From assembly GCA_021780375.1 (NCBI GenBank), contig JAJXYT010000001.1, positions 304 through 64,303 of the forward strand: a stretch of DNA of 64,000 nucleotides, written 5' to 3'. This stretch comes from a bacterium. Lineage in GTDB: Bacteria > Verrucomicrobiota > Verrucomicrobiia > Limisphaerales > UBA11358. Each line of letters starts with the position of its first letter. The stretch's first letter is position 1. Positions 30,739-61,497 of this stretch are shown piece after piece. Position numbers and translations under genes: made by a program. The notes under the pieces were generated by a model, which worked only from the letters and a program-made list of their open reading frames with translations, did no database searches and was not told the origin of the DNA.

Positions 30739-30960
30739 ATGAACAAGCTGCGTTCCAATGGTCTGAATTTCACCGGACTCCTGGCGGAAAATATCGCGCT
30801 CATCTCACCCACTATGACGGCGGCGCTGATCATTCCGCTGATGCTTTCCACGATTGGCAACCTCAGTTGGGTGGGTTACGCGCCGGGCACAATCTTACCG
30901 ATGTTCGTCGTGTTCAATTTGAATCGTTTGCCCCCCAATCAGTTCGGTTGCAACCGGTAA
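30739..30960 (+). pseudogene. N-terminal ~70-aa fragment of an APC-family amino-acid permease
   Basis: MNKLRSNGLNFTGLLAENIALISPTMTAALIIPLMLSTIGNLSWVGYAPGTILPMFVVFNLN resembles the first two TM segments of APC permeases. The ORF ends where the convergent GH53 gene ends. Confidence 0.5.
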
Positions 30961-32270
30961 AAACGGGTCTGGCTCGAGTCCACCGGGAGGGTGACGGTAA
31001 ACACTACCCCCGTGGTTTGGGCCGTGTTGGGCACCAACGACCAGATCGCTGAGGGCTCCAGAGTGGTTGTGGTCGTCAACATCAAAGCCGCTCCACTGAA
31101 TGGCCACTGAAGCTGTAGATTTGAACCGTTGAGTGAGGGGCTTATCAAAAGCGGGGCGGCCATTCCCCCAACGGCGCGGGCCACCGGCAGAACATTGCCA
31201 CCGGCATCAAAAAACGACGACGAATTGAACCCGGCTTCATTGACACCGCTGGCCGCTTGATACTCGGCGCCCCAATAGACGAAGCCGGCCCCGAGGTGGT
31301 TGGGCACACTTTCCACAATCCTGGCCAGCGCGGCGATAAAGCTGACCTGACCAGCCGGGGTGGGAGGGTAGCCGTAAAGTTTGCCAAGCCAGGCGGAAGG
31401 GCAGGTATTGGTGTAGGGAAAGGCGTCCTCAGCTACGATGATGGGTTTGCCAAATTCAACGGCTGCATTGCTGAGACAATTATTCAGATTCGCCGGTGAT
31501 CCCTGGTAAAAAGGGTAATAACTCTCGCCGATGATATCGTAAGGAACTCCTTGAGCATTCAGGTTTTCAAAAAATGACCTGGTCGTGCCCCAGTCACCGC
31601 CTCTGTCAATATGTACGATGATCTTAGGCATTTTAGCCCCCGTAGCATTCGTCGCATCCTTGATTCCCTGGATTGCCGCATTCATCAATTGGCCCAGCCG
31701 GATCCACGATGGGTTGGAGCTGCTCCATGAGCCCGTTAGCTGTCCGTTGGTCCACAACATGCCGTAGGTGATTTCATTCCCGATCTGGACGTAATCCGGC
31801 ATTGCCCCGGCTGCCGCAAAAGCGACGATGGTGTTGCTGTTGTAAGCGCGCATCTGTGACACCAGTTGGGCGAAAGTCAGGGTTGCCCAGGCAGCCGGAG
31901 TGGTTTGATGCCCGGGGTCAGCCCAGGTGTCGGAGTAATGAAAATCCAGCATGAACTGTAACCCGGCGTTTTTGACGCGTTGAGCGAGCGGCAGCGTATA
32001 GGCAAGATTGTTGGTGTAGTTATATGGGTCGGCCTGGGCTTGAGCCGCGCTGCTGGTCCAGAGCCGCAATCTAATGCAATTAATGCCGTGATTCTTGAGA
32101 ATCTGAATCCCGTCCTGAACCTGCCCGGCGTCCTTGTAGGTAATACCCCGATCTTCGAAAAATTTTAGATCAGAAAAGTCCGCCCCGGCGATAAAGCTGT
32201 TTTGCGCGAATGATATACCCGGCGCAAACAGTGCCGCTATCATCATTAAAGAGACACAGGCAGATTTCAT
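30939..32270 (-). CDS. GH53 arabinogalactan endo-beta-1,4-galactanase with FYR-tail domain
   Basis: Signal peptide from ATG 32270. GH53 blocks are present (GADFSDL, NCIRLRLW, MLDFHYSDTWADPGHQ, VQIGNEI). The protein ends RFYRLQPN. Confidence 0.87.
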   Translation of the reverse strand: MKSACVSLMMIAALFAPGISFAQNSFIAGADFSDLKFFEDRGITYKDAGQVQDGIQILKNHGINCIRLRLWTSSAAQAQADPYNYTNNLAYTLPLAQRVKNAGLQFMLDFHYSDTWADPGHQTTPAAWATLTFAQLVSQMRAYNSNTIVAFAAAGAMPDYVQIGNEITYGMLWTNGQLTGSWSSSNPSWIRLGQLMNAAIQGIKDATNATGAKMPKIIVHIDRGGDWGTTRSFFENLNAQGVPYDIIGESYYPFYQGSPANLNNCLSNAAVEFGKPIIVAEDAFPYTNTCPSAWLGKLYGYPPTPAGQVSFIAALARIVESVPNHLGAGFVYWGAEYQAASGVNEAGFNSSSFFDAGGNVLPVARAVGGMAAPLLISPSLNGSNLQLQWPFSGAALMLTTTTTLEPSAIWSLVPNTAQTTGVVFTVTLPVDSSQTRFYRLQPN

Positions 32271-32382
32271 TTTAATAATGCTTACCTCGATCCAGCTGTT
32301 CACCCTGAAACTGAAGCTGGAGTCATTCCATTTTTGCGCGAACAACTCCAGCTTCGTGTCCGGATTTTATAATCCCGAACGG

Positions 32383-35094
32383 TCAGGGTGTCTTCAAGCG
32401 GAAGAATGTCCGGGATCCGGTGGCCGGCACCGGCAACGAATAAAGTCCATACGTGCCGGGCACATCCTGCCAATTCAAGCTGCTGCTTAAATTGGTGGAA
32501 CTCTGCAACTTCACCGCGGGGTTTCCAACCCAGGACAGATTGAGGTTGCCGCCTGTCAGCGGGCCGGCATTGATGCCGCCAACAACTCCCAGGTCCGCAA
32601 TCTGGAAGTTATCGAAGTTGAAAGTTCCCCCGCTCCCGACCGTGACGAACACCAGGCCGGCGCCCGTCATCACACCGCTCAAGTTGCCGGCCGCTGCCGA
32701 CCCAATCAACCCGCCCGAACTGGTCACGGTCAAGTTGTTCCAATTTGCCGCGGCGGGATTAAAGTTCATGGTGTAAGTGGAGAACACCGAGTTCGAGGCG
32801 GCATTCGGCCCCAACAAGGGGTTCGCGGAAATGTACCAATTGGCGCCATTAAGCTGCACCGCCACGTAGGCCGCGACGTTGGTGGCGGAAGCCGAGTTGG
32901 GCGCAATATCCGCCGAGATGCTCAAGTTGGGATAGGCGGCCAGGGCGATGTTCGGGAACGGCAGTCCAGACTGATTGGTATCGGAGGCCGTCGTGGCGTA
33001 ATACACCGTCGTGCCCGGAGTGCCAAGGTAGGCAAAGGCGGCTCCCTGGCTTGCGGCGCTTGTCTGGGCCGTTCCCACCTGGTAGAGGGCGTTGGGAGTG
33101 CCGGGAACCGCTTCCACCCAGCCAATACTGCTGATCGGATAGTTGCCGGCAACCGGGCCTACAAACGGAAACCCTTCCGAATAAACCAGGCCGACGGAAG
33201 GATTGGTTACCGTCAGGGTGGTGGCGCCAAAAATTGCGGCACTGTTATCACCGCCGGCCGCGTTGGTGACATATGCGACGATCTGCAGGCCATTATCGTT
33301 GGCAGTCAGATCCGAGATCGTCAAGGTCGCGGTGTTGGCGCCGGAGATTCGGCCTCCGTTGGAAACAAAGACGCCGTTGGTCGTCCAACTGTAGGTGAAG
33401 GGCGGAGACCCGGCGGCAGAAACCCCAAAGCTCGCGCCACCCCCGGCAGCCACCGTTACCGCCAGCGGGTAATTCAAGCCGATCGACGGCGGTGTTCCGA
33501 CGGCTTGATTGGTAATGATTTCAAAATTCTGGAAATTCATGTCCGAACCGGTCCCGGTATTGTGAGCAATCACCAGGCCGGCGCCAATGATGTTGCCGCT
33601 CAGGGCGCTTGAGGCCTGGCTGCCGATGATCGCACCCGTGCTCGTAATGGCCAGGTTGTTCCAATTGGTTGCCGCGGGGTCAAATCCATATTGATAGGTC
33701 TGATAATTGTTCAATGACGAGAGATCAATCAGGGCAGGTTGTGCCGAGCAATACCACCCGCTGGTCATCTTGACCGCCCAATAAACCGAGATGGCTCCGG
33801 AGACCTGGCCGGCGGCATTTCCCGGGACAAAACCAGCCTGGAAACTTACATACGGGTAACTGGACGGATTTATATCCACAAACGGCAATCCGGACAGTCC
33901 GGTGTCGTTGGTGTCCGTTGTGTAGTAAGCGTTGGTTGTGGCGGAAGGTGAATAGGAAAAGACATCGCCCAGCCCCCCGCCGGCCGGGTAAATGCCCACC
34001 ACCGTGCTGCCCGGCGCGGCACTGACCCAGCCGGGGCCAGTGATTGGCAGGTTGCCATTAGGTCCCACATAAGGGAATGTTTCCGCATACAAGAGCCCCG
34101 GAGGCACGTTACTGACAATCAGCTGCAGGCCGCTGTTGGTGGCGCCGCCAAATTTATTTGTCACGACCAGCGTGTAAAAGGAACCCGCATCGTTGAGGTT
34201 GCAATTGGTGATGGTGAGCGTATTGCCGCTGGTGCCGAGATACCTGCCGCCGCTGATATTAACTCCATTCGTCTGCCACTGGTAAACCAGGAGCGGACCG
34301 GCAAAGGTTGACAGAAACGATGCCCCACCGCCGACGTACACGTATTGCGGGCTTACCGCGGCGGCAGTATTGGTTGGCGCAGTTTGTGGAAAATCGCCCG
34401 GACCTTGATTTATGACGAGTTCGTTATAGTTGAACCCTCCGCTGGTCGGAAGCTCAACAATGCCAATGCCGGTGATCGGCGAGGTCAGGTTGGGGGAGGC
34501 CACGGCACCGATTGTCACATTGGTGGTGCCGTTGATGGTCAAAGTTTGCCAGACGTTGGCCGGATTGGTATAAATCAAGGCATCATTGGTAAACTGGGGG
34601 TAACCAAGATTGCCTTGATTGGGAAACTGATAAGAGGTTGCCACATACCACTGTCCACCCACCAGAACGGCAAAGTAATTGGTGTCCGTTGCCGCCCCGC
34701 GAACCTCGATGTTGAAGGTCAGGTTGGTGTACAGGGTCGGGTTAATATCACTGAAGGAGGAATTGCCGCCGGCTCCGGCGCCCGAGGTGTCGGTTGTGTA
34801 AAGCATCCCGGCCCGGTTGGTGCTCTGAAAGGCTGTAAAATAAACCGTATTGGGCGGCAGCGCCAGGCCGAGGGTCGGGTCGCTCGCGCCCGTGGCCGTG
34901 TAGATGCCGACATAAGGTCCGGCAGTCTGTGATGCCGCAATCGCCGTCCACCCAACCGTATTGATATTGCCGTTCCCGGTGACGCCGCTGTTACCGGTAC
35001 CCCAGTTTTCGGTGTAAACAGTCACCGCAGATGCAAACGGGACCGCGCTCAGCAGAGCGCTCCCGACGACAGCTATGAGTAGTATTTTTTTCAT
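32383..35094 (-). CDS. Large secreted protein: three [~200-aa LamG-like module + Ig-like domain] units plus FYR tail
   Basis: Signal peptide from ATG 35094. The internal threefold repeat is visible in the translation (modules starting VYTENWG, LLYAETFPYVGP, LVYSEGFPFVGP, each followed by an Ig-like YQW/YSW...TLTI block). The protein ends TFFRLKTP. Confidence 0.7.
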   Translation of the reverse strand: MKKILLIAVVGSALLSAVPFASAVTVYTENWGTGNSGVTGNGNINTVGWTAIAASQTAGPYVGIYTATGASDPTLGLALPPNTVYFTAFQSTNRAGMLYTTDTSGAGAGGNSSFSDINPTLYTNLTFNIEVRGAATDTNYFAVLVGGQWYVATSYQFPNQGNLGYPQFTNDALIYTNPANVWQTLTINGTTNVTIGAVASPNLTSPITGIGIVELPTSGGFNYNELVINQGPGDFPQTAPTNTAAAVSPQYVYVGGGASFLSTFAGPLLVYQWQTNGVNISGGRYLGTSGNTLTITNCNLNDAGSFYTLVVTNKFGGATNSGLQLIVSNVPPGLLYAETFPYVGPNGNLPITGPGWVSAAPGSTVVGIYPAGGGLGDVFSYSPSATTNAYYTTDTNDTGLSGLPFVDINPSSYPYVSFQAGFVPGNAAGQVSGAISVYWAVKMTSGWYCSAQPALIDLSSLNNYQTYQYGFDPAATNWNNLAITSTGAIIGSQASSALSGNIIGAGLVIAHNTGTGSDMNFQNFEIITNQAVGTPPSIGLNYPLAVTVAAGGGASFGVSAAGSPPFTYSWTTNGVFVSNGGRISGANTATLTISDLTANDNGLQIVAYVTNAAGGDNSAAIFGATTLTVTNPSVGLVYSEGFPFVGPVAGNYPISSIGWVEAVPGTPNALYQVGTAQTSAASQGAAFAYLGTPGTTVYYATTASDTNQSGLPFPNIALAAYPNLSISADIAPNSASATNVAAYVAVQLNGANWYISANPLLGPNAASNSVFSTYTMNFNPAAANWNNLTVTSSGGLIGSAAAGNLSGVMTGAGLVFVTVGSGGTFNFDNFQIADLGVVGGINAGPLTGGNLNLSWVGNPAVKLQSSTNLSSSLNWQDVPGTYGLYSLPVPATGSRTFFRLKTP

Positions 35095-35181
35095 GATGGT
35101 TGGGTTTATTTTGATTATTTGCTTGGTGCCGATAATGAAAGGAATGTTAAGCAATGGAAAAATCGGGCAATCACCGATGAA

Positions 35182-36090
35182 TTAATTGTAATTGTTCATC
35201 CATGTCGGCCAGTTCGGCGTCCAGGGGACAAAAATCTTGCTCCAAGGCAACGTCCAAAGCTCTTTCAACCCCACGTTCCTGACGGAACCATCTACGAAGG
35301 TCATATTGACAGGGCTTCGGCCGGGATGTCTGGCAGTGGCAAATGACTGCAATTCGGTGAATTTCCCGCAAAAACCTTGAGACTGAGGCGGCAAATTATA
35401 AATCAGGTTGCCGGTGCCAGGGGAGTGCGGATTGGATCCCTGCCAGACGCAGTCGCTGAATAATGGCACTCGTGTCGCGTACCTGCCCGCGGCGGTCATG
35501 GTCCGCCAATACCCCGGCGCATCGGGATCACCAACAATGGTTGCGGTCGGAGGGTTGGCCATCCAGCCGTTAAACCCATAACTGCCGCCCATTCCTGGAC
35601 GACCCCACGTCTCCGTCTGTCCCGTTCCGGGCGCCGTGCTCGAACCGACGGGATAAGCATTTGTACCCATTATCCCCCAGGCTAAAAAAGTGGTGTTGTT
35701 GACAGTCCACATGTTTGCACCCAATGAACTGCGGCATGTGGTGGCGGCAGGGCAAAAGCACATTTTACCGCCCATGCCGGTGCCCGTGCTGGATCCGGGA
35801 ATGTACGGCTGCAAAGCGAACATCCACATCCCATCAGGATCATACCAGCCCAACGGCAAACTGTCGTGGTGGTCCCCCGCATAAAGCTGAAAGGACAACC
35901 CCCACTGCCTGAGGTTCGATACGCACAGAATACGCTGCGCTCGGAGTTTTGCGGCGGACAGGGCCGGCAGCAACAAGGCCGCTAAAATGGCAATGATGGC
36001 AATCACCACCAGCAATTCAATCAACGTAAAGCCTGATCGCCATGGTCGCCTCTTTTTCAATTTTGATATTTTAAAATCGGGCGTCTGCAT
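35182..36090 (-). CDS. DUF1559-type protein with prepilin N-terminal cleavage/methylation signal
   Basis: [25 protein letters not shown] class-III signal and a C-terminal ...[11 protein letters not shown] block typical of the PVC-expanded DUF1559 family. Confidence 0.8.
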
Positions 36091-36266
36091 CTGGTATAAA
36101 TGAATTATCCGGATTGTATATTATTATATATCCTTTATCCGCTCTTGTTCAGCACATTTATGACAAGCCAGTTTTCATCTCATTTGTCCCGCTGTTGGAA
36201 CAACAACGGGCATTGTTTCACCTGACGGCATGAGTGATTACGTCAAACGTAGTTGGTTTTTTGGCC

Positions 36267-36295
36267 TTTGCCTAGCCTCACAAATGTAGAGTATT
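36267..36295 (-). promoter_or_regulatory. Conserved upstream motif, copy A (tttgcctagcctcacaaatgtagagtatt on the plus strand)
   Basis: 29/29 identical to 37391-37419. It lies 177 nt upstream of the DUF1559 gene start. Confidence 0.5.
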
Positions 36296-36567
36296 ACCGT
36301 GGCTACCTCGGCATGGCAAACGACCTAAGTCGTTTTGGATAAATACCATCATCCCGGTTCCGTTTTGCCGAATTGAATTTAAACGGAGCTTTGGGTCGGG
36401 AGCGGACTGGATCACGAAATGAATTTCGTCGATGCACAGTATGTGTCATCTGACAAACGGGCCTGCCGAATCCCGACGCCAAAATTGGCTGGATGATGTT
36501 ACAAGCACAAAGTGCTGCTCATTTTCACAAGCAGCACTTTTGCCTTTCACAATGGTCAAAATCAAAA

Positions 36568-37335
36568 CTAACGGGCGGAAAATACCCTTCGGCGCACAAT
36601 CATCAGCAACGCGCCCAAACCGAGGAATGCGCTCGCAACCGGTTCGGGTACCACGGTGTACCTATACGCCGCCGTGCCAAACTTCGTGGCGGCTCCCCCG
36701 GCATCGGTAGCAGCGTCATAAGCATTTTGACCAAGAGTATAAGCGTGATAGCTATTATCTGTCTCCGCCGGATAATTGCTGAGCAATGAACCATAGGCGG
36801 ATTGCCCGGCACTATTGGGGTACGATGACGCAACGTCAAAGTAGAACTGGCTGCCAACACTCAATCCGAGGCTGCTTAACGGCACGGTGAACGTGAGGAA
36901 ATTGTTTCCTGTGCCGCCAGCATCATAGCTCACTGCGGCGTTCTGCGTCCATGCGCCGCCACTGTAGGTGTCCGCACTGGCGCCCGTGTTCCAAGTGGCC
37001 GCAAAGGCGTTTTCACCGGTACTGATGCCAAGACTGGGCCCCCACCCGTTCAGGGCTCCCGCGGAGTTAAACAGCGCCGTACTGCCACTGGCACCCTGGC
37101 CGACATACTGCAAGAGGACATAATACTGAACGTACGCGCTCTGCGCCGCGCTCGTATTAATGGAGAAAGTGATGCTGCTGGCAGTATTGTTGATTACGAC
37201 GCTGCTGATACCTTCCCCATTGGCCCCGCCGCCATTCGCAGTACCGGGACCGATATAAGTGACCTGAGCCTTAGCCGGCAACAGGGCGATTGACAACGCG
37301 GCGAGTACTGATGCGACTGAAGAAACAATTTTCAT
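36568..37335 (-). CDS. PEP-CTERM sorting-domain protein
   Basis: Signal peptide from ATG 37335. The C-terminus VVPEPVASAFLGLGALLMIVRRR has the PEP motif, a TM helix and a basic tail. Confidence 0.8.
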   Translation of the reverse strand: MKIVSSVASVLAALSIALLPAKAQVTYIGPGTANGGGANGEGISSVVINNTASSITFSINTSAAQSAYVQYYVLLQYVGQGASGSTALFNSAGALNGWGPSLGISTGENAFAATWNTGASADTYSGGAWTQNAAVSYDAGGTGNNFLTFTVPLSSLGLSVGSQFYFDVASSYPNSAGQSAYGSLLSNYPAETDNSYHAYTLGQNAYDAATDAGGAATKFGTAAYRYTVVPEPVASAFLGLGALLMIVRRRVFSAR

Positions 37336-37390
37336 AGACGATTGATTTACGGGTTTGCCAACTGCATCAATTATGCCCAAAATTCTTGAG

Positions 37391-37419
37391 TTTGCCTAGC
37401 CTCACAAATGTAGAGTATT
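37391..37419 (-). promoter_or_regulatory. Conserved upstream motif, copy B
   Basis: Identical 29-mer, 56 nt upstream of the PEP-CTERM gene start and just downstream of the response-regulator stop. Confidence 0.5.
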
Positions 37420-37462
37420 CCAAGCCTTCGCCCGGCCCGCATATTATGTAAGTCCTTCTGAA

Positions 37463-38110
37463 TTAACGGCTATCCGGTTTATCCTGTTTGGTGGAACGGA
37501 ATTTGAGGGCCGCTTCGGTGCGGGAACGGACATGCAGCTTATTGTACACGTGCCGGAGATGCCAGCGCACTGTGCCATCGGTCAATCCCAAGCGGTCGGC
37601 GATTTGTTTGTTGGGGAATCCGCTGGCCAGCAATTCCAGGATCTCCCGCTCGCGCGCCGTGAGGTCTTCCACTTCCATGGCGGTCGCCAGCGGCTCTTGA
37701 AAGGAAGCGATGACCTTGCGCGCGATTTCCCGCGACATCGGGGCGCCGCCCTGCCGGACTTCGCGGATGGCGGCAATGAGTTCTTCGGGGGCGCAACGTT
37801 TCAGGAGATAACCACAGGCCCCCATGCGCAGGGCTTTGAAAATCCGTTCGGTGTCTTCATAGACCGTTACCATGATAATTTGGACGGCGGGCAGCGATTG
37901 TTTCAGTTGAGCGAGGCAATCAATGCCCGACATGTTGGGCAATTGAATGTCCATCAGCACAATCTCGGGCTCGTGTTTGGGAATCACCTTCAACGCTTCT
38001 TCGGCCGTCGCACAAGCGCAGACACAGCGGCATTCCGGGTCCGCGTGGATGAATTCCATGAGACTCTCGCGAATCACTTTGTTGTCTTCAACAATGGCAA
38101 TCCTGGTCAT
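37463..38110 (-). CDS. NarL/LuxR-family response regulator
   Basis: REC domain (IVLMDIQLP) plus a LuxR HTH (LTAREREILELLASGFPNKQIADRLGLTDGTVRWHL). The start overlaps the kinase stop (ATGA). Confidence 0.9.
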   Translation of the reverse strand: MTRIAIVEDNKVIRESLMEFIHADPECRCVCACATAEEALKVIPKHEPEIVLMDIQLPNMSGIDCLAQLKQSLPAVQIIMVTVYEDTERIFKALRMGACGYLLKRCAPEELIAAIREVRQGGAPMSREIARKVIASFQEPLATAMEVEDLTAREREILELLASGFPNKQIADRLGLTDGTVRWHLRHVYNKLHVRSRTEAALKFRSTKQDKPDSR

Positions 38111-41100
38111 GAACTTAAAGGCACGTAAAATCGCACTGTGGTGCCGTGACTGGCTTCACTGGTAATTTCAAATCTTCCACCCAACTTTTCAATGCGCGCC
38201 CGCATGTTGGCCACGCCGTCCATTTCCCCGGTGGGCACCCCCGCGGAGAATCCACGCCCGTTGTCGGCGACGGCCAGCCACACCTGACCTTGTTCCGCCT
38301 GGATGCTCAAGCGAACTTCCGAAGCGTCGGCGTGGCGCACCACATTGGTTAACGCCTCCTTGAACGCCAGGAACAACTGATGCCGGTGCCGTGAATCCAC
38401 CATGGGATCGGGCATTGCGGGCATGCCTTCCAGGCGCCAGGCGATGTTGGCCAGGCCCAGGAAACGGTCCGCGTAAAGACAAAAATAACTGACCAGCGAC
38501 GCGAGGGAATCGTGTTTTGGATTCATGGCCCAGACGATCTCATCCAGCGCCGTGACCATTTCGCGGGCTTTTTCACGCGCTTGTTCCAGATAATGGTTCC
38601 GCTTTTGGTCGGGGGCGGTGGCGGATCTTGCCCGGGCGGCCAACATGCTGATTTCGGTGATGCCCGAGCCGAGTTCATCGTGCAGATCCTGGGCAATCCG
38701 GGCGCGTTCCTGCTCCATGGCGCGCTGGTGCTCGACCTTCTGGCGCTGCTGGATTTGAGCTCCCAGCTCCCGGGTGCGTTGTTCAACCTGCCGATGCAAT
38801 TGAGTAATCCACAGCGCGGCGGCGGCCAGCACACACACCAACACACCCATCATGACCAGCAACCGTTCCAGCGTCCACCACGGCGGCCGCGCCAACACTT
38901 TGATGTCCGCGGACGAATTGAGCAGCAGTTCGAAAGAGGTGATATCCTGACCCATCGCCCGGTTCCCGCCTTCACCCAGATAAACTCCGACCAGTTCCAA
39001 ACGGGCGCCCGGAGCCAGCGAATGGACGGAATCATTCCGGGTATTGAGCCGGGCCATAAACGTGCGGACGCCGCTCCGCATTTCCAGAGCCTGGCCGGCC
39101 GGCGTTTCCCGCACGTTCACGAGCAATCCGTCCACCGTCACGAGCGTCGAGTCATACTCCGCATGGATTAAATTGTCCGGTTGCAGCTTGCGCGCCTTCG
39201 GCAGGGGGGCGTGGCCGATCTTGCGCGCCACGGCCTCATGCAGGAGCGGAGAAGCGCCGCTCAGTCCCGGAAAGCCGACCACTTCCACCCGATCACCGGC
39301 TGCCAGTCCCGGAACCGGTTTCTTCAAAACAAATTGCACGCCGTATTTGTCATCCATCAGATAATATTCCGGAGCCTGTGCGTAAATAATCTGTCCCGAA
39401 ACTTTCACCCGCTGGAACACGCCGGCTTGCGGGTTGAACTGCAACAATTCCGCCACGGTCTTCAAGGGAAGCGAAAACAAATCTGTCGGGGCCGGCTGAT
39501 CCACCGAGATTTCCGCGCCGTAAACCCGGATCTCGCCCACTTTTACCTGGTGCGTCACGTAATCCCAGGAGGCCAGCAGACAGCCCCGCACGCGGACGAC
39601 GGCATCTTCATAGCGCTCCAGCCCCGCCGTCTTGATTCCGACAACCCTTAACTCCAACTTGAGCTGGCCGTCCCCCGTGAACAGCGTTACGCCATTGGTG
39701 CTGACCGACGTGATGATGCCCTGTAATTCAACATACTGGGCATCCAGACTTCCGTTCATCAACTGTTCCCAGGCCGGATGCACCGGCTGCGGCAAACGGC
39801 CCGCCCCCAGATCCCCGACACGGTCCGCATCAACAATGGGAGCAAACAGGCTGGGATCGGTCTTGCCTTCGACCTCGAGGTACTCACCAATCTTCGGCGG
39901 CACGGACCGGCTCTCGGAAGCATCAACCACATACAATCCGCGGGTGGCATCTTGAATGGTGAAAGCCTGGCGTTCCGGCAGGACACAGGTAACGACCCCC
40001 TGGATTTTTACAGGATAGCCCCGCTGCGCCTCTTCCCGGTTCAATTGATGAACTTCACTGGCGGTGGTCAACACCGGCAATGTTCCCGCGCGGGTGTCCT
40101 TGTTTTTGGGCGTGGGATTGGTTGTCCCGATGATTTGGATGGCGTGTTTGTCCGAAACCAACAGGACACCACCCACTTGCTCTGCCTCGGCATCGTAAAC
40201 ACTTTGGCAAACGCCGGTGACCCGGACCCGGCTGTTCAACAGCCGGCCCACCGACAATCCGGAACCATCCGCCACCTTGAGCTTCAGGCGGCCGGTCTCG
40301 GAGGTTAATTCCAGGTCCCAACCATCTTTCCGATCACTGACAAACGTGACTTTTCCTTCAACTTCAACCCACTGATAATCACCGCTTTCGCTCAATGTCT
40401 GCCCGATGGTCATCCGGCGCGGTTTCGGCAGTTCTATCCGTCCGATCGTTTCCAGCCGGAGCCCTGAAAGTGTTCGGGGTTCACCAATGAATAATTGACT
40501 GCCATCATCCGAGGTAAGGTAAAAGGTATAAAGGCCGTCGCGGGGAACCTGAAGATAGCCCGTGTATTCCAATCCAACGTGTTCGTTGTGGCTCATCACA
40601 CCCAGCATGACGCCGAGATCAAAGTTGGACACGTTCCCGGTTTTGAGGGGAGCCAGCTCTTTGAAGTCAGGCAAAACCTCGCCGTCAGCTTCGTAACAGG
40701 CATAATTCAATCCGTTTACAAAATTGGTTGCCTCCGTGGCATCCGTTGGAACACGAAAGAGCACTGAATCAGGAATGCTTTGACGGGGCAGGGCCGGCCC
40801 TTGATAAGCCACTTCCAGGCCATATTTTTCGACACCATTAAACCAATCGACGCGAATGGGATGGCGGCCCGCCTGAAGATAGACCGCCCCGGATTTTTCA
40901 ATCATCGTATGGATGCCGTCGTCATCCACCACCGGTCCCACGATTCCGAGTTGAACACCCGCATCCCGCCGGGTAATGGTGCTTTGGCCCTCCAATCGCA
41001 CGCGCTGGCCCGGTTCGAGGGACCGGCCCGCCAAATCCATCTCCAACTCGTCCGTCCCGGACGCATCCTGCAAAACGAATTTTCCCTGCGCCGGGTCCGC

Positions 41101-41328
41101 CCACAAAATGTCTCCTTCCAGACGGATCCGATAGCTGACATTCGGGTTCTGGGAACCCAGCCGGGCGAGTTGCACAAGGTTGGTCACTGCGGACGAATCG
41201 GTCGGGGCGGTGGCGGGCAACGCCGATCCGGCAGTGAAAATCAAAACACAGCCGATCGTGACACACCCCTGTGCCGTCCCCAACGCTTGACGCGCGCGTG
41301 TCGAAAAGGGCTTCAAGAATTCAATCAT
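38107..41328 (-). CDS. Sensor histidine kinase (HisKA_3/NarX-DesK type) with ~800-aa extracytoplasmic region containing PA14-like segments and repeated OB-like modules
   Basis: H-box IAQDLHDELGS and an HATPase block (VADNGRGF...GGRFEI). There are two hydrophobic anchors. PA14-like sequence: GLNYACYEADGE...GLYTFYLTSDDGSQLFIGE. ATG 41328 is preferred over the track start at 41661. Confidence 0.85.
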   Translation of the reverse strand: MIEFLKPFSTRARQALGTAQGCVTIGCVLIFTAGSALPATAPTDSSAVTNLVQLARLGSQNPNVSYRIRLEGDILWADPAQGKFVLQDASGTDELEMDLAGRSLEPGQRVRLEGQSTITRRDAGVQLGIVGPVVDDDGIHTMIEKSGAVYLQAGRHPIRVDWFNGVEKYGLEVAYQGPALPRQSIPDSVLFRVPTDATEATNFVNGLNYACYEADGEVLPDFKELAPLKTGNVSNFDLGVMLGVMSHNEHVGLEYTGYLQVPRDGLYTFYLTSDDGSQLFIGEPRTLSGLRLETIGRIELPKPRRMTIGQTLSESGDYQWVEVEGKVTFVSDRKDGWDLELTSETGRLKLKVADGSGLSVGRLLNSRVRVTGVCQSVYDAEAEQVGGVLLVSDKHAIQIIGTTNPTPKNKDTRAGTLPVLTTASEVHQLNREEAQRGYPVKIQGVVTCVLPERQAFTIQDATRGLYVVDASESRSVPPKIGEYLEVEGKTDPSLFAPIVDADRVGDLGAGRLPQPVHPAWEQLMNGSLDAQYVELQGIITSVSTNGVTLFTGDGQLKLELRVVGIKTAGLERYEDAVVRVRGCLLASWDYVTHQVKVGEIRVYGAEISVDQPAPTDLFSLPLKTVAELLQFNPQAGVFQRVKVSGQIIYAQAPEYYLMDDKYGVQFVLKKPVPGLAAGDRVEVVGFPGLSGASPLLHEAVARKIGHAPLPKARKLQPDNLIHAEYDSTLVTVDGLLVNVRETPAGQALEMRSGVRTFMARLNTRNDSVHSLAPGARLELVGVYLGEGGNRAMGQDITSFELLLNSSADIKVLARPPWWTLERLLVMMGVLVCVLAAAALWITQLHRQVEQRTRELGAQIQQRQKVEHQRAMEQERARIAQDLHDELGSGITEISMLAARARSATAPDQKRNHYLEQAREKAREMVTALDEIVWAMNPKHDSLASLVSYFCLYADRFLGLANIAWRLEGMPAMPDPMVDSRHRHQLFLAFKEALTNVVRHADASEVRLSIQAEQGQVWLAVADNGRGFSAGVPTGEMDGVANMRARIEKLGGRFEITSEASHGTTVRFYVPLSS

Positions 41329-41401
41329 GGTAGAACCGGGGCTGCATTTGTCGAGACTCTTACATTCAGGTTCAGCAGATGGTTCGGACATTCGGTTTGC
41401 T

Positions 41402-41907
41402 TCAGGCTCGCACGGTTCTGGTACGCGCCAGCGCGTCCGTTTGGGAGGGAACCTCTGTTGAACCGCGGCTCCGCTCGGTGACATTGAATCCCCAAAATCG
41501 AATCGGTTGACCATTCCCTTTGACCAGTGGGTCGCCCTCCGCGCGAATAAAGCCGTCCTTTCCCGCGGGCGCATCCAGCCGGAAAGAAAAATCAATGACG
41601 GAGTTGGTGGCGTGGCGATAATCGATGACAAAAGGCTTAAGCTCGATTCCCGGTGACGCAAACGGCGTCGTCAGCCCGAAGGACCGTCTGAAGAAATCGG
41701 ATCTCCACCGGGGGCATTTATCTTGGTCGTTTCCACACCGCCGTTCGGCGCTTGTCTGCCGGCCGGTGGCACTCCATTCCGGGCCGGCGCCGGCGCCGGG
41801 GTTAAAAGCAAAAACAGAAGGGTCCATCCGGGCGCTCGAATTTTCATCTTCCAGTAAAAGTCGCCGGTTCGGAAGCCTGCGCCCAAAAGTCCGCACCTGA
41901 TTGACAT
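41402..41907 (-). pseudogene. Frameshifted, 3'-truncated remnant of a secreted glycoside-hydrolase-like gene
   Basis: A signal peptide MKIRAPGWTLLFLLLTPAPAPA is in one frame. In another frame, LKPFVIDY...LDAPAGKDGFIRAEGDPLVKGNGQPIRFWGFNV resembles the entry to a GH TIM barrel. The ORF stops ~25 codons later. Confidence 0.4.
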
Positions 41908-41990
41908 CCAAGCTCTCCGCGGGGACAGTTTGGTTCATCGTCGGAGAATCGAGGTTGGCTGTTAACCGGGATATTTCACACTCATTGGCA

Positions 41991-42056
41991 GGGAGCGCCG
42001 GCTTGGAGCCGGCCTGGCGCGTTCGTCGCCCAATGCCGGTTGCAGACCGGCGCTCC
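41991..42056. repeat. Degenerate GC-rich hairpin of the GGAGCGCC...GGCGCTCC class
   Basis: gggagcgccggcttggagccggc ... gccggttgcagaccggcgctcc. The outer 10-11 nt are complementary and the interior is degenerate. Confidence 0.5.
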
Positions 42057-42095
42057 GTTCTGTCGGCGTTTTGTGCGAAGTGCGAAATATTCAGG

Positions 42096-43454
42096 TTAAT
42101 GTCGTCCAATCGTTTCCGCCTGCGCTGTTGGCACTGCCGGCTGAGGGCCTAATACGTACAGAGCGGGAAGCGGGTTGCCCCTGGCATCAAAAAGTGAGTT
42201 GGCATCAGGCCCGTTCCAGCGATTGGTGGAACCCGGAATGAAAGTGGCCTCGGGATGCCAGTAATTCACTCCGATGCCACGCCCTTCCGGCGCTTGCCGG
42301 ACCACTCTGATGAGGTCGGCCAAAAATCGTTCCTGTCCTTCAGGGGTCATGGGCCAAATCATATTCTTCGCCGCGGCGGGCGAGGGATGAACATCCCGGG
42401 AAGGATATGCGGTTTCAACAATCATCACGTCCTTGTGGTAACGTTCAATCGTGTGGCGCAGGTTGTCGCGGACATCCTCCAATGTGCCGTGCCAGTTCGG
42501 ATAATAACTCTGGCCGATGACATCATAGTCAACTCCGGCCCGGGTCAGATGGTCAAAATACCATTTGGTCACCGGCCAGTCACCGCCGCAATCAATATGA
42601 ATGACGATGCGGACGTGGTCCTCCGGCGCGGTGACCGAACGAACGCCACGGGCATCGGCTTTTAAAAGCCGGATGAGATGATCCCACTGTTTGGCATCGT
42701 CGTAAGGTTCCGGCGGTTTGATTGCCGTCACATCACCTCCAAACACCTTGACGGTGGAAAGCGGAACCTTCACCTGGCCTTCCGGCCACAGCATACCGCC
42801 AGTGATTTCGTTGCCGAGCTGGACGAAATCCGGCGTTGCGCCGGCGTCCTTCAACGTCTTGATTACCTGGGCGGTGTAGGCCTGCGTTTGTTTGACCAGG
42901 GCATCAAAATCCAGATTCGCCCACGCGGCGGGCTTGTTCTGTTTCTGTGGATCGGCCCACCAATCGGAATAATGAAAATCAAGCATGAACGTCCCGCCCG
43001 CGTCCTTGATTCGTTTGGCCAGTTTGGTGGTATATTCAAGGCCATTGACACCGTCGCGGGGATCAACCCAAATCCGCAAACGAAAACAGGTCCAGCCGTG
43101 TTTCATGAAAATGGCCAGCGCGTCACCGGGTTTGTCACCGTCCATATAAATGCCGCCGCGCTGCTCGACTTCTGCGAGGGTGGAAATATCCGCCCCCAGA
43201 TAGAACGGGGCCGGATTAACCCGGGCCGCCGCTTGAGGAGCGGGGCCGCTCGCACCTCCGGTGGTCGGGAACAAGAGAATGGCCGCGAGTAGCCCGATCC
43301 CCGATGGAACGCTGTTCCAGGACAAAACGGTGGATGATATTTTTATCTTTCCTGAGGTGCTATGGTTGTCGTATCTGTGGGCAGCCGTTGACCGGTGGGC
43401 GCAGTTGCCGACGACGCCACTGCGACGCAGCCAGGCCGGAAAAAATGTGTCCAT
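42096..43454 (-). CDS. GH53 endo-beta-1,4-galactanase, second paralog without FYR tail (start uncertain)
   Basis: GH53 blocks GADISTL, TCFRLRIW, MLDFHYSDWWADPQKQ and VQLGNEI. The hydrophobic signal-like segment begins ~50 codons after the track start. Confidence 0.85.
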   Translation of the reverse strand: MDTFFPAWLRRSGVVGNCAHRSTAAHRYDNHSTSGKIKISSTVLSWNSVPSGIGLLAAILLFPTTGGASGPAPQAAARVNPAPFYLGADISTLAEVEQRGGIYMDGDKPGDALAIFMKHGWTCFRLRIWVDPRDGVNGLEYTTKLAKRIKDAGGTFMLDFHYSDWWADPQKQNKPAAWANLDFDALVKQTQAYTAQVIKTLKDAGATPDFVQLGNEITGGMLWPEGQVKVPLSTVKVFGGDVTAIKPPEPYDDAKQWDHLIRLLKADARGVRSVTAPEDHVRIVIHIDCGGDWPVTKWYFDHLTRAGVDYDVIGQSYYPNWHGTLEDVRDNLRHTIERYHKDVMIVETAYPSRDVHPSPAAAKNMIWPMTPEGQERFLADLIRVVRQAPEGRGIGVNYWHPEATFIPGSTNRWNGPDANSLFDARGNPLPALYVLGPQPAVPTAQAETIGRH

Positions 43455-43518
43455 GGAATGATGTTACACCCGCAAATCAACTTGTTGCATCAGGAAATCA
43501 ACCGAAGGGCCAAAACCA

Positions 43519-43540
43519 TACATTTGTGAGGCTATGCAAA
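43519..43540 (+). promoter_or_regulatory. Conserved upstream motif, copy C (tacatttgtgaggctatgcaaa)
   Basis: 21/22 identical to the reverse complement of the core of copies A and B. It has the same orientation relative to its downstream gene (GH2, ATG 43638). Confidence 0.5.
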
Positions 43541-43637
43541 ATCCTTCCAAAAGGTTGCCATTCATCCAATGGCCACCACGAAGTTCTTGAAGCGGAACCT
43601 CTCGCTTCGGAATTAACAAGCTGGAAAGGCGATACTT

Positions 43638-46214
43638 ATGAAAGGAACAACACACCTCAGTTTATCTCAACCGGGTGGGAAACATCTGGTTGTCGCCAGC
43701 CTCCTCATTCTGAATTTGTTGACAACCGCTGCTCCGGCAACCAGTCACGTTCGGGAACGTCTTTCATTCGACTCCGACTGGCGTTTTACCAAAGGCGATC
43801 CGCCCGGGACGGGTGATGAACTCAGTTATACCAACATCAAACCCTGGGTTGTGGCCACCGGCAATGAGTTTGTAGTGGACGGCAAAACCATGACGCGCCC
43901 GCCGGGCAATCCTGGTGCAGAGGTCGTCTACACCCGGGGAGGATATGATGACAGCGGCTGGCAGCAACTGAATCTTCCCCACGATTGGGGCATTGCAGGG
44001 CCATTCAACCGGAAAGCTCCCGGCTCAACCGGCAAACTGCCCTGGGAAGGCATCGGCTGGTATCGCAAGCACTTTACGGTCCCCGCCTCCGACCAGGACC
44101 GCCGCCTCTATCTTGCAGTGGATGGCGCGATGTCTTACGCGAACGTCTGGCTGAACGGCCAATACGTCGGCGGTTGGCCCTACGGATATTCCTCCTGGGA
44201 ACTTGACCTTACGCCGTATGTCAAAGCCGGCGCGGAAAATGTCCTCGCCATCCGTTTGGACAACCCGCCGGATTCCTCGCGCTGGTATCCGGGCGGCGGC
44301 ATTTACCGCAATGTCTGGCTGGTCAAAACCGGGCCGGTGCATGTGGCGCACTGGGGCACTTACGTCACCACGCCGAAAATCAGTCCCGCCGCCGCCACGG
44401 TGAAAATACAGGTCATTGTGGAGAACGAGGCGAAAATTGCCGCCACCGTATCGGTGAAAAATGAGGTTTACGAACTCAAGGCTGAGGGAGACAAAGGTGA
44501 ATCCGTTGCCACAACCACGACCGACGGTGTGCAAGTTGCGCCGCAAAGCAACCGGCTGATTCCGGCGCAGGCCACCGTCAAAAACCCGCGGCTTTGGAGC
44601 CTGAAAAAACCGCAACGCTACGTTGTGGTCACTTCGATTGAGCAAAACGGCAAACGGTTGGACCATTACGAAACGCCCTTCGGCATCCGCACCATCAAGT
44701 TTGACGCCAACCAGGGTTTCTTCCTGAATGGAAAACACGTCCGCCTTAACGGCGTTTGCGACCATGCCGACCTGGGCGCGCTTGGCACGGCAATCAATAC
44801 CCGCGCCCTGGAGCGCCAAATCCAAATTCTACAGAAAATGGGCTGCAATGCCATCCGTACCAGTCATAATCCGCCCGCGCCGGAGTTGCTCGATTTGTGC
44901 GACCGCATGGGGATGCTGGTGATGGACGAGTCGTTTGACTGCTGGGAGCGCGGCAAACGGCCCAATGATTATCATCTGCTGTTCGATGATTGGCATGAAA
45001 AAGACTGGCGCGCGGAATTGCGCCGCGACCGGAATCATCCCGGCATCATCCTCTGGAGCATCGGCAACGAGGTGCCCGATCAGAGAACGCCCGCCGGTCT
45101 GCGAATTGCCGCCGAATTGACCCGCATCGCGCACGAGGAAGACCCGACCCGGCCCACGACCGCCGCCTGCGACCAAATTGCGTCGGGCTTCGATGGTTTC
45201 CAGACCAACGTTGATGTTTTCGGCTATAACTACAAACCTTTCCTGTACGCCAGGGTCCATGCGGCCAATCCCGGTCTGCCGATCTTTGGCAGCGAAACCG
45301 CCTCCTGCATCAGCTCACGCGGTGAGTACTTTTACCCCGTCAGCACCAACAAGAATGATGGCAAGTCCGATTTCCAGATGAGTTCGTACGACCTTTCGGC
45401 GCCGCCTTGGGCGACGATCCCGGACACCGAATTCAAAGGCCAGGACGAAAATCCATTCGTAGCCGGCGAGTTTGTGTGGACGGGTTTTGATTACCTCGGC
45501 GAACCGACGCCGTACGATGCTCCCAACGATCCTTCGCGCAGTTCTTATTTCGGGATCGTTGACCTGGCCGGCTTCCAGAAAGACCGTTTTTATCTGTATC
45601 AAGCGCGCTGGCGGCCTGACTTGCCCATGGCTCACTTGGTGCCGCAGTGCTGGAACTGGCCGGACCGCGCCGGGCAGACCACACCCGTGTTTGTTTATAC
45701 TTCCGGCGATGCTGCCGAACTGTTCCTCAACGGCAAATCGCTGGGCCGGAAGACCAAGGAACAATATGAATACCGTCTTTGTTGGAATGAAGTGAAATAC
45801 GAACCGGGCAAACTCAAAGTGGTTGCTTACAAAAACGGCAAGCCGTGGGCAACCGACATGGTGCAGACCACCGGCCCGGCCGCGAAGCTCGCCTTGCAGC
45901 CGGATCGCAAAAAAATCCACGCTAACGGTAAAGATTTATCCTTCGTCACATTGACGGTCGAGGATAAGAACGGTTTGATGGTCCCCCGGGCGGCCAATGC
46001 CATCCATTTCGAAATTTCCGGTCCGGGCGAAATTGCGGCCACCGATAACGGCGACCCAACGGATTTGGTCTCGTTTCCCTCCCACGACCGCAAGGCATTT
46101 AACGGCCTTTGCCTCGCCATCGTTCGCTCCCAGGCAGGACAGAGCGGGACCATTAAACTCACAGCAATATCCGATGGCTTAAAAGCGGCCAGCGTTTCCA
46201 TCCGGGCCCGATGA
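43638..46214 (+). CDS. GH2 beta-galactosidase
   Basis: 858 aa with a signal-like N-terminus. It has a GH2 sugar-binding domain, Ig domain and TIM barrel, with blocks NAIRTSHNPP and WSIGNEV. Confidence 0.9.
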   Translation: MKGTTHLSLSQPGGKHLVVASLLILNLLTTAAPATSHVRERLSFDSDWRFTKGDPPGTGDELSYTNIKPWVVATGNEFVVDGKTMTRPPGNPGAEVVYTRGGYDDSGWQQLNLPHDWGIAGPFNRKAPGSTGKLPWEGIGWYRKHFTVPASDQDRRLYLAVDGAMSYANVWLNGQYVGGWPYGYSSWELDLTPYVKAGAENVLAIRLDNPPDSSRWYPGGGIYRNVWLVKTGPVHVAHWGTYVTTPKISPAAATVKIQVIVENEAKIAATVSVKNEVYELKAEGDKGESVATTTTDGVQVAPQSNRLIPAQATVKNPRLWSLKKPQRYVVVTSIEQNGKRLDHYETPFGIRTIKFDANQGFFLNGKHVRLNGVCDHADLGALGTAINTRALERQIQILQKMGCNAIRTSHNPPAPELLDLCDRMGMLVMDESFDCWERGKRPNDYHLLFDDWHEKDWRAELRRDRNHPGIILWSIGNEVPDQRTPAGLRIAAELTRIAHEEDPTRPTTAACDQIASGFDGFQTNVDVFGYNYKPFLYARVHAANPGLPIFGSETASCISSRGEYFYPVSTNKNDGKSDFQMSSYDLSAPPWATIPDTEFKGQDENPFVAGEFVWTGFDYLGEPTPYDAPNDPSRSSYFGIVDLAGFQKDRFYLYQARWRPDLPMAHLVPQCWNWPDRAGQTTPVFVYTSGDAAELFLNGKSLGRKTKEQYEYRLCWNEVKYEPGKLKVVAYKNGKPWATDMVQTTGPAAKLALQPDRKKIHANGKDLSFVTLTVEDKNGLMVPRAANAIHFEISGPGEIAATDNGDPTDLVSFPSHDRKAFNGLCLAIVRSQAGQSGTIKLTAISDGLKAASVSIRAR

Positions 46215-50926: not shown

Positions 50927-51315
50927 TCAGAGTGAGCCGGATTAGCATCCGTTTCAATCGATTTTTAGCAAAAGAGTTCCGTGATGACACTTCTCAGGTT
51001 TCGCCAAATCAAACGAACGTGAATTTATCCCGCAAAACAACATGAAAATATGGCTCGCCCGGCGGAAGGGGTGCCCAATTTTCAAACAGGTTTGCAACAA
51101 TACGGGGGTGACACCAAGCATTGGTTCAGCTAAGATTTTAGAATCAATCAATGTTAAGCGAAGCCGCAATTTATGCTCATGACAGGTGAGTAGCGGCGGG
51201 TGGAAGCCGGTTAAGCCCAATAAGGTAAAAATTAAATAAACGTATAATTCTCAAACCTTCTGGAGATTCCTATGAAACAGATTCATTCAATTCTCGCCAT
51301 CATCCTGGGTGTCAC

Positions 51316-53535: not shown

Positions 53536-53558
53536 TTCGGCGTTGATGCTTGAAACGA

Positions 53559-53594
53559 AAGCGTCCTTGGCGTCCAGCCAAGGACGCTTTTTTC
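53559..53594 (+). terminator. Rho-independent terminator
   Basis: aagcgtccttgg-cgtccag-ccaaggacgctt followed by a T-run, 24 nt after the stop at 53535. Confidence 0.8.
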
Positions 53595-53738
53595 ATGCCT
53601 GGCTGAAGTTTGCACGTTCCGCGGGCATGAGCAAAACGACCCGGAGTGACAAATCTCAGAGCGTGTCCGAAAAACAGCAGCAGCCAGCGTGAACTGGCCC
53701 TGACATCATGACCGCAGCGGCGTTTCACGAGGGAATTT

Positions 53739-61404: not shown

Positions 61405-61448
61405 TTAAAATTTGCCGGCTCGGATACAGAATCGTCTCCAAATACAAA

Positions 61449-61477: not shown

Positions 61478-61497
61478 CACAAGGAAAACCACAACGA

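Follow-up and report, generated by a model that had tools for sequence, protein, structure and literature searches.

We describe here a cluster of galactan-related genes at positions 30939-46214 of a 64,000-nucleotide stretch of contig JAJXYT010000001.1 (assembly GCA_021780375.1), referred to below as the window. The cluster is probably a conserved beta-1,4-galactan utilisation regulon of an uncultured Limisphaerales bacterium, and it is defined by an operator that stands ahead of three of its transcription units. It comprises two genes for glycoside hydrolases (GH) of family 53, a GH2 gene, a gene for a pilin-like protein, a gene for a secreted 903-aa protein with immunoglobulin (Ig) domains, a gene for a PEP-CTERM-type protein and a two-component system with a PA14 sensor kinase. 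The Verrucomicrobiota and Planctomycetota have a major part in breaking down complex glycans in soil and water, which raises the question of how glycans are bound and taken up where SusC and SusD are lacking. Polysaccharide utilisation clusters under two-component control are already known; new here are an obligate pilin-like partner, a putative binding domain and an operator that co-varies with its regulator.

Pfam and NCBIfam scans took in all 49 open reading frames (ORFs) of at least 90 aa in the window, and together with the ORF listing they placed every gene where a first-pass annotation of this DNA had put it. The features of the locus are as follows.

30939..32270, minus strand: GH53a, predicted endo-beta-1,4-galactanase (PF07745), with a C-terminal tail
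32383..35094, minus strand: Ig903, secreted non-catalytic 903-aa protein with two I-set/Ig_3 domains
35182..36090, minus strand: prepilin-like gene, 302 aa, N_methyl (PF07963)
36123..36151, minus strand: sigma-70-like promoter match TGAACA-17-TATAAT before the pilin-like gene, conserved only in the closest relative
36270..36291, minus strand: operator copy 1, CTCTACATTTGTGAGGCTAGGC, 180 nt upstream of the pilin-like gene
36498..36545, minus strand: terminator-like hairpin after the PEP-CTERM gene (-25.1 kcal/mol, z -5.4), conserved in 5 loci
36568..37335, minus strand: 255-aa secreted PEP-CTERM-type protein, C-terminus read directly
37394..37415, minus strand: operator copy 2, 60 nt upstream of the PEP-CTERM gene
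37463..38110, minus strand: NarL/LuxR-type response regulator (Response_reg and GerE)
38107..~41328, minus strand: PA14 sensor histidine kinase, ~1073 aa (PA14, HisKA_3 and HATPase_c)
42096..43454, minus strand: GH53b, second predicted endo-galactanase (PF07745), start within its ORF uncertain
43516..43537, plus strand: operator copy 3, CCATACATTTGTGAGGCTATGC, in the divergent GH53b/GH2 intergenic region, 100 nt upstream of GH2
43638..46214, plus strand: GH2 beta-galactosidase (NCBIfam GalB) with signal peptide, divergent from GH53b

The gene order was compared in 38 non-redundant related Limisphaerales loci from metagenome-assembled genomes (MAGs); a scan restricted to one genome per species gave 37 loci, all from MAGs and none from a cultured strain. 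The pilin-like gene is the immediate same-strand upstream neighbour of the 903-aa gene in all 29 loci with enough upstream DNA. Downstream of the 903-aa gene stands a galactan enzyme in 36 of 37 loci, be it GH53, GH35 or a GH53 fused to the D domain described below; this count includes a few loci in which split pieces of the 903-aa gene are followed by the enzyme. A PA14 kinase and a NarL-type regulator are present in 19 of the 21 loci that have at least 7 kb of upstream DNA, and homologues of the 255-aa protein in 14 of 38. Relative to the window's copy, the 903-aa proteins of these loci are 36-84% identical, and the synteny persists at 36-45% identity. Four divergent orthologue contexts with Pfam annotation (61-74% identity) likewise hold a PA14 kinase with a GerE regulator, an N_methyl gene, a ~900-aa protein and GH53 or GH35, often with extra GH53 and GH2 genes. 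Since the arrangement is conserved over 38 loci and is accompanied by a common cis element for which no matches are expected by chance in the window, it lies far beyond chance, and the view that the cluster is one functional, substrate-specific unit for beta-1,4-galactan is supported by gene order. The earlier proposal that these genes form a galactan unit thus gains from the retained order of pilin-like gene, 903-aa gene and GH53 or GH35, from the retained kinase and regulator, and from the operator. Four of the MAG records (L010, L011, L018 and L023) are labelled Bifidobacteriaceae, Acidiferrales or Angelobacter, while all other carriers are Verrucomicrobiia or Limisphaerales; these labels look like binning or labelling errors.

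The operator, a ~24-nt element (AACCATACATTTGTGAGGCTAGGCA), is located ahead of three transcription units in the window: the pilin-like gene with the 903-aa gene and GH53a, the PEP-CTERM gene, and GH2, which diverges from GH53b. It emerged as an invariant block when the 477-nt region upstream of the pilin-like gene was aligned in five loci, the rest of that region having diverged apart from the terminator hairpin after the 255-aa gene, which is conserved in the same alignment and separates that gene from the pilin-like operon. Three copies of the 22-mer CTCTACATTTGTGAGGCTAGGC stand in the window, where 0.00 would be expected by chance. The window and the 38 loci together hold 61 operator instances in 713 kb. 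All 57 instances with an identifiable downstream gene are oriented towards a gene of the cluster and lie within about 360 nt upstream of it (pilin-like 27, PEP-CTERM 14, GH53 13, GH2 3); for the other four, no gene is annotated within 600 nt. Metagenome contigs, scanned independently for exact matches, yielded 95 instances in 83 loci; the gene behind the operator is the pilin-like gene in 43 instances, the 255-aa gene in 20, GH53b in 5, GH2 in 4, and the kinase gene and the 903-aa gene in 1 each. Twelve further instances were unassigned, mostly owing to spurious short ORFs before pilin-like genes, and nine lay at contig ends. From the common operator we infer co-regulation of the galactan units. 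In one metagenome locus (L106:3437-4800, Ga0137433_1001397), a 437-aa protein directly behind the operator carries three CBM20-like repeats and the same beta tail as the proteins described below, ending YFRLIGP.

The consensus over 170 distinct instances is aaCcaTACaTTTGTGAGGCTAGGCAaa, and its core is an imperfect 7-2-7 inverted repeat, CCATACA-TT-TGTGAGG. In three loci (L006, L010 and L012) a variant, CCTGACATTTGTCAGG, forms a perfect palindrome (CCTGACA-TT-TGTCAGG), and in exactly these three loci the recognition helix of the regulator's GerE domain reads STGTVRWHLENIY, as opposed to TDGTVRWHLRHVY in all others. One of them, L010 (CAYPSF010000093.1), holds both regulator types (EN or RH helix; 3-620 and 12579-13285) together with both operator variants, which suggests two parallel galactan-type circuits in one genome. 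Because operator and recognition helix co-vary and the kinase/regulator pair is retained, the operator is most likely read by the NarL-type regulator of the locus itself.

The response regulator matches PF00072 (E 2e-27) and PF00196 (E 3e-19), and the start of its gene shares 4 nt with the end of the kinase gene. The kinase would be ~1073 aa long if translated from M112 of ORF 38107-41661, a start that is uncertain; two transmembrane helices enclose a ~770-aa periplasmic part with the PA14 segment (40483-40599), and HisKA_3 and HATPase_c follow. The PA14 model (PF07691) scored 41.6-43.2 bits against a cut-off of 24 while covering only profile positions 38-77 of 147. The description of the pair as a LuxR-type regulator and a PA14 kinase is borne out by the receiver and GerE domains, by HisKA_3 and HATPase_c and by the above-threshold PA14 match, and by this domain content the two proteins are assigned to the NarL/LuxR-type two-component systems. 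Searched against the PDB, the periplasmic part aligned over ~165-190 residues with the PA14 dyads 6qdi (E 4.5e-11) and 6qe7 (RsgI3, E 2.4e-5), and its best single match was the PA14-type region of a sulfatase (9s8a). The dyads 6qdi and 6qe7 bind xylan and pectin, respectively (PMC6852018), and the match fits a predicted role of the kinase as a polysaccharide sensor. Between GH53b and the likely kinase start, ~770 nt (41329-42095) hold no recognisable gene, ORF 41402-42109 being without a Pfam match; elsewhere among the loci, GH53b and the kinase gene adjoin directly or overlap.

GH53a comprises 443 aa when read from M26 of ORF 30939-32345; its signal peptide and catalytic domain are followed by a beta tail of ~65 aa, whose last residues at the C-terminus are FYRLQPN. 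Both GH53 proteins match PF07745 (E 3.4e-88 for GH53a, 2.5e-92 for GH53b) with bit scores of 296 and 310, the cut-off being 24, over profile positions 1-335 and 1-340 of 340. In both, the two Glu motifs of clan GH-A catalytic sites can be read directly as GNE and V(A/I)E (VAE in GH53a). On the full-length match and the two Glu motifs, both proteins are predicted endo-beta-1,4-galactanases; they are 39% identical to each other. The GH2 protein scored 1212.6 bits with the NCBIfam GalB model, for which the equivalog cut-off is 900, and its Pfam domains include DUF4982 and GH2_C5. Signal peptides are present on GH2 and on both GH53 enzymes.

The 903-aa protein begins with a signal peptide and consists of three D domains separated by two Ig domains, with a ~60-residue tail at the end. 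In residues, D1 spans 23-233, Ig1 241-328, D2 334-527, Ig2 546-630, D3 636-833 and the tail 841-901; the corresponding window positions are given below.

34396-35028, minus strand: D1
34111-34374, minus strand: Ig1
33505-34101, minus strand: D2
33205-33459, minus strand: Ig2
32587-33195, minus strand: D3
32386-32583, minus strand: tail

An AlphaFold2 model built with 56 orthologues is all-beta, with a predicted local distance difference test score (pLDDT) of 83. The three D domains (~200 aa each, all-beta) are mutually homologous (hhalign probability 99-100%), and the Ig domains match I-set/Ig_3 of Pfam. The protein had been labelled a giant LamG/Ig surface protein; of the two domain labels, only Ig is borne out. 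No LamG match was obtained for the whole protein at E<=0.01 or for 41 isolated D domain sequences at E<=10, the latter giving no Pfam family at all at E<=10 beyond scattered single-member noise. A profile search of D against the PDB returned a single chance match (E 0.19), which leaves no LamG, other Pfam or PDB sequence match outside the Ig parts, and a length of 903 aa is not giant. In a Foldseek search with the whole model the top 50 matches were Ig-domain proteins only, the Ig domains having dominated the comparison. D is best called a new domain, without family assignment.

More than 300 full-length orthologues of the 903-aa protein were found, and the 119 listed besides the window's copy are 61-96% identical to it, the named sources being nearly all uncultured Verrucomicrobiia/Limisphaerales MAGs. 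The D family itself counts 332 cluster representatives at E<=1e-3 in a profile search of 1.84 billion representative proteins. Its short members (~230-330 aa) consist of a signal peptide, one D and a PEP-CTERM anchor. The 35 long members include 17 with Ig domains, 6 with a GH53 catalytic domain and 1 with Glyco_hydro_cc, while dockerin, ricin-B lectin or CBM_4_9 occur in single or paired cases. In 12 related loci, a neighbouring protein of ~770-890 aa is built of a signal peptide, one D, a tail and then a GH53 catalytic domain. Being fused to a galactanase or to a surface anchor, and triplicated in a secreted protein of the galactan regulon, D behaves like a glycan-binding surface module and can be put forward as a candidate carbohydrate-binding module (CBM) for galactan. 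The tail is common to the 903-aa protein, GH53a and the CBM20-like protein mentioned above; a profile of the 903-aa protein's tail matches GH53a residues 404-466 (E 1e-6). It is internal in the D-tail-GH53 fusions and thus not an obligate C-terminal sorting signal, but a beta-sandwich module. No Pfam family matched the tail at E<=1, barring a chance-level fn3 match for the tail of a 739-aa protein encoded farther along the window, and profiles detected no D domain in that protein or in the 255-aa PEP-CTERM protein.

The 255-aa protein ends in VPEPVASAFLGLGALLMIVRRR, that is VPEP, a 17-residue hydrophobic stretch and RRR, as read directly. Its PEP-CTERM label can be kept on this visible ending, but not on the models, with PF07589 at 10.7 bits against a threshold of 20.7 and NF038129 at 21 bits against 65. 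The N-terminal domain of the protein has no family assignment, and the window contains no exosortase gene.

The pilin-like protein carries the class III signal peptide RSG|FTLIELLVV, with Gly at -1, an N-terminal Phe and Glu at +5, and passes both PF07963 (N_methyl, 30.2 bits, cut-off 21.2) and TIGR02532 (32.5 bits, cut-off 16.3). By this signal peptide and its alpha-1 helix it is assigned to the superfamily of type IV pilins and type II secretion pseudopilins. A globular part of ~250 aa follows, with conserved Cys residues and a C-terminal H-x11-DG motif; in an AlphaFold2 model built with 53 orthologues (pLDDT 56) only the N-terminal helix 22-71 is confident, and matches in the PDB were to pilin N-terminal helices only. 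The earlier name, prepilin-like DUF1559, is right as to the prepilin motif, but the window protein falls short of the DUF1559 model (PF07596; 19.9 bits against a gathering threshold of 23.3, E 8e-4), which about a fifth of the listed orthologues carry. Homologues bear the Joint Genome Institute label 'prepilin-type processing-associated H-X9-DG protein'. The family is very large, 7985 of 8000 candidates scoring at E<=1e-5, and 68 copies of DUF1559 / H-X9-DG proteins are on record in Planctopirus (PMC10632474); our literature search on DUF1559 / H-X9-DG found no functional study. A regex search for further pilin-like genes in the fetched loci returned almost only orthologues. In the source metagenome run, the stretch 35526-36039 has an assembler word depth of 87 against about 10 elsewhere, a ~9-fold excess; it lies inside the leading ~190 codons of the pilin-like gene, covers the prepilin signal and N-terminal helix, and is probably common to many paralogues in the community or the genome.

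Judged by gene context, the 903-aa protein has an obligate partner in the pilin-like protein, and the strict coupling of their genes points to a direct partnership. The gaps of 87 nt between these two genes (35095-35181) and of 112 nt between the 903-aa gene and GH53a (32271-32382) are exactly as first noted, given starts at M21 and M26 of the respective ORFs. Within the 87-nt gap lies a short hairpin with a T-run (35162-35178, minus strand), which might set the ratio of the pilin-like to the 903-aa product. The pilin-like protein could serve as a locus-specific subunit of an apparatus like those of type II secretion or type IV pili, exporting or displaying the tail-bearing proteins, an assignment that we make tentatively and at a little under even confidence.

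A second cassette, next to genes of hexuronate catabolism, resembles the galactan locus in its composition. Its features are as follows.

46929..49744, plus strand: UxaE (tagaturonate epimerase) and UxaC (glucuronate isomerase), hexuronate catabolism
49775..57098, both strands: second (homogalacturonan) cassette with regulator, 739-aa protein, pilin-like gene and GH28
49775-50926, minus strand: XylR-like regulator
51316-53535, plus strand: 739-aa secreted protein with FYR-type tail, divergent from the XylR-like regulator
54617-55582, minus strand: second pilin-like (prepilin-type) gene
55725-57098, minus strand: GH28

The orthologues listed for the 739-aa protein (46-95% identity) lack any Pfam domain. 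All three orthologue contexts contain a regulator of the XylR-like type, GH28 and an N_methyl gene, and UxaE, UxaC or a pectinesterase lies nearby. As both the galactan and the GH28 cassettes are conserved, the combination of a regulator, a pilin-like protein, a large non-catalytic secreted protein and a family-specific hydrolase would be a repeated design. Beyond GH28, at 57808-62397, a 740-aa TPR protein stands between two PEP-CTERM proteins of 333 and 299 aa. The 299-aa protein has a ~190-aa domain in common with the 739-aa protein (28% identity, E 3e-5) and a distant hhalign match (95.5%) to the D-plus-PEP-CTERM family, which is partly owing to the PEP-CTERM end.

Under the regulon reading, galactan or its oligosaccharides would be sensed in the periplasm by the PA14 kinase, which would phosphorylate the NarL-type regulator; a regulator dimer would then bind the 7-2-7 inverted repeat and switch the units on. 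The 903-aa and PEP-CTERM proteins would be exported and hold galactan at the cell surface through the D domain, while the chain would be cut by the two secreted GH53 enzymes. Galactose would be released by the exported GH2 (GH35 in other genomes) and taken up by transporters encoded elsewhere.

Several observations weigh against this scheme or parts of it. The window has no separate operator copy before GH53a or before the kinase gene, and the element is strongly orientation-dependent, so that all or part of it could be a promoter read by an alternative sigma factor. No contigs matching the locus were found in three small metatranscriptomes of the same study. No secretion or pilus machinery genes occur in the window, the globular domain of the pilin-like protein was modelled poorly (pLDDT 56) and its role is argued from position only; for the fold of the D domain, the whole-model Foldseek search gave Ig matches only. 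That the conserved element is an alternative-sigma promoter and not the site of the adjacent regulator, with the two-component system acting on something else, is the main competing reading of the operator and appears rather unlikely. Its constant orientation towards the downstream gene at 20-360 nt and the lack of a conserved -10 element downstream of it speak for such a promoter, and a gene for an extracytoplasmic function (ECF) sigma factor lies near one orthologous locus; that gene is not conserved in the other three annotated contexts, the imperfect repeat becomes a perfect palindrome in the variant that co-varies with the regulator's recognition helix, and the kinase/regulator pair is kept in 19 of 21 loci. 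It is very improbable that the genes stand together by chance, or through loose clustering of carbohydrate-active enzyme (CAZyme) genes, without forming a unit: pilin-like paralogues are so numerous that some adjacency to CAZyme genes is to be expected, but the synteny of 29/29 and 36/37 holds across loci with 903-aa proteins 36-84% identical to the window's, and the operator has zero chance expectation in the window. Synteny, together with the operator counts in the window, the related loci and the metagenome loci, effectively refutes chance clustering.

The two remaining alternatives concern the pilin-like protein. The first-pass annotation had noted the absence of SusC/SusD and of a sugar transporter, and indeed neither these nor a TonB-dependent receptor could be found among the 49 window ORFs or in the four Pfam-annotated related loci. 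It is conceivable, if improbable, that the pilin-like and tail-bearing surface proteins functionally replace SusC/SusD by capturing galactan fragments, which a retractile pilus-like fibre would carry through the outer membrane. Besides the lack of a receptor or transporter, the strict coupling of the pilin-like and binder genes and their co-regulation with the enzymes would suit such a device; the same pairing recurs with GH28 and pectin, and for Akkermansiaceae it has been proposed that a type IV-like pilus serves in attachment to glycans (PMC13174399). The locus encodes nothing, however, that could serve as an outer-membrane channel or drive import, and none of the 95 metagenome operator copies has a transporter gene behind it. 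With signal peptides on GH2 and both GH53 enzymes, breakdown to galactose could end outside the cytoplasm with no oligosaccharide import. Pseudopilins of known systems, moreover, act in export, and export or surface display by the pilin-like protein is judged more likely than a role in uptake. The wider proposition that each polysaccharide locus of the Limisphaerales, and perhaps of the Planctomycetes-Verrucomicrobia-Chlamydiae (PVC) group, encodes its own pilin-like subunit and matching binder, as a substrate-specific capture and uptake device on a common machine of the type II secretion or type IV pilus kind, seems doubtful to much the same degree. If true, such a device would be a functional analogue of SusC/SusD and would explain the tens to hundreds of DUF1559 / H-X9-DG paralogues.

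A distinctly unlikely alternative is that the pilin-like protein does not form part of a fibre at all and is a periplasmic ligand binder, anchored in the inner membrane, that captures galacto-oligosaccharides on behalf of a transporter or the kinase. The weak PF07596 match, with orthologues that pass this model, would fit such a function, as would the great size of the family and the ~250-aa globular part, which exceeds the matched solved pilins and pseudopilins (61-208 aa). The Pfam identifier of PF07596, SBP_bac_10, hints at a solute-binding role. Against a binder stand the sole confident structural feature, a pilin alpha-1 helix with the canonical cleavage and methylation motif and Glu5, and the lack of a transporter partner in the locus. 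The tentative assignment to an export or display apparatus is preferred over both.

In the galactan polysaccharide utilisation locus (PUL) of Bacteroides thetaiotaomicron, a surface GH53 and a periplasmic GH2 are combined with SusC/SusD, a surface glycan-binding protein and a hybrid two-component sensor. The window locus resembles it as a one-substrate locus with GH53 and an exo-beta-galactosidase, non-catalytic surface binder(s) and a dedicated periplasmic sensor regulator. It differs in having no SusC-like transporter or SusD, both of which were searched for, in a sensor that is a classical kinase with PA14 and a NarL-type regulator and not a hybrid, in a binder of a different domain without family assignment, and in its obligate pilin-like gene. 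Measured against a Bacteroidota-type PUL, the locus lacks the SusC/SusD pair and shows co-localised and apparently co-regulated CAZyme genes for one glycan and a dedicated sensor.

Within the Verrucomicrobiota, a close parallel is an alginate-induced cluster of Verruconatronum alginivorum (Opitutales) that includes a pulG-like pseudopilin with 67 paralogues; a pseudopilin is among 17 proteins over-produced on alginate, and the authors of that 2026 study suggest type II secretion of the lyases (PMC13274419). Both cases join polysaccharide-degradation genes to a pseudopilin of a many-paralogue family. Unlike the window locus, V. alginivorum has another substrate, enzymes of polysaccharide lyase families and TonB-dependent transport of the products, and no paired large non-catalytic protein, operator or regulator such as those of the window locus is described in that study. 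In the mucin and fucoidan loci of Akkermansiaceae a type IV-like pilus (MUL2) is tied to glycan attachment (PMC13174399), which likewise links verrucomicrobial pilin-like proteins to the use of complex glycans; by its description, MUL2 is set apart as a single conserved pilus locus (PilM and a pilin-like protein) and not a paralogue per CAZyme locus. The CUT loci of freshwater Verrucomicrobia (PMC5615132) also cluster secreted glycoside hydrolases, but are defined by a TonB-dependent receptor, of which the window has none. Among solved carbohydrate sensors, those nearest to the sensor part of the kinase are the clostridial anti-sigma-I sensors RsgI3/RsgI4 (6qe7, 6qdi; PMC6852018), which also use extracytoplasmic PA14 to sense plant polysaccharides and switch on the matching enzymes. 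In the window the signal would pass through a histidine kinase and a NarL-type regulator instead of anti-sigma and sigma-I, and the sensor, at ~770 aa, is far larger and for the most part without family assignment. The DUF1559 / H-X9-DG pilin-like proteins are the largest paralogous family of the Verrucomicrobiota and Planctomycetota, and the locus gives a testable clue to their function. It is a clean, conserved case that lends itself to experiment: a single pilin-like gene is tied to a single secreted binder and a single enzyme family, there is a defined operator with a probable cognate regulator, and a pectin-backbone example adjoins.

The surroundings of the locus differ on its two sides. 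Left of 30939 lie housekeeping genes. On the right, 46214 had been taken as the end of the island; the genes up to that point are present as described, but pectin genes run past it to the window end, with UxaE, UxaC, the XylR-like regulator, the 739-aa protein, the second prepilin-type gene and GH28, followed by the two PEP-CTERM proteins, the TPR protein and a truncated GH28-fn3. The sole transporters in the 64-kb window are ModABC (27330-29859, beside MoaE/MoeA) and an AcrB-type RND pump. A fused MoaE-MoeA molybdopterin biosynthesis protein (25421-27064, minus strand) adjoins ModABC and marks the left edge of the glycan region. Between the galactan genes and UxaE, a 101-aa ORF (46366-46671, minus strand) has a weak, below cut-off match to an ISL3-type transposase zinc ribbon (E 1.9e-4) and may be a mobile-element remnant. 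Rfam and tRNA scans gave no RNA genes in the window, and a generic terminator scan was at the level of shuffled sequence (24 sites against 22.3 expected), from which only the conserved hairpin after the PEP-CTERM gene was retained.

DNA of the window is present in mine-drainage and soil metagenomes. One Logan contig of a DNA run links the two GH53 paralogues (42834 -> 31833, 'goes back 11002'), which is most likely an assembly-graph cross-join of similar sequences and not a rearrangement. Unrelated to the galactan locus, an 816-aa multihaem cytochrome with MtrC/MtrF-like, PKD and Big_9 domains is encoded at 16345-18795 (minus strand), a notable gene in a mine-drainage organism.

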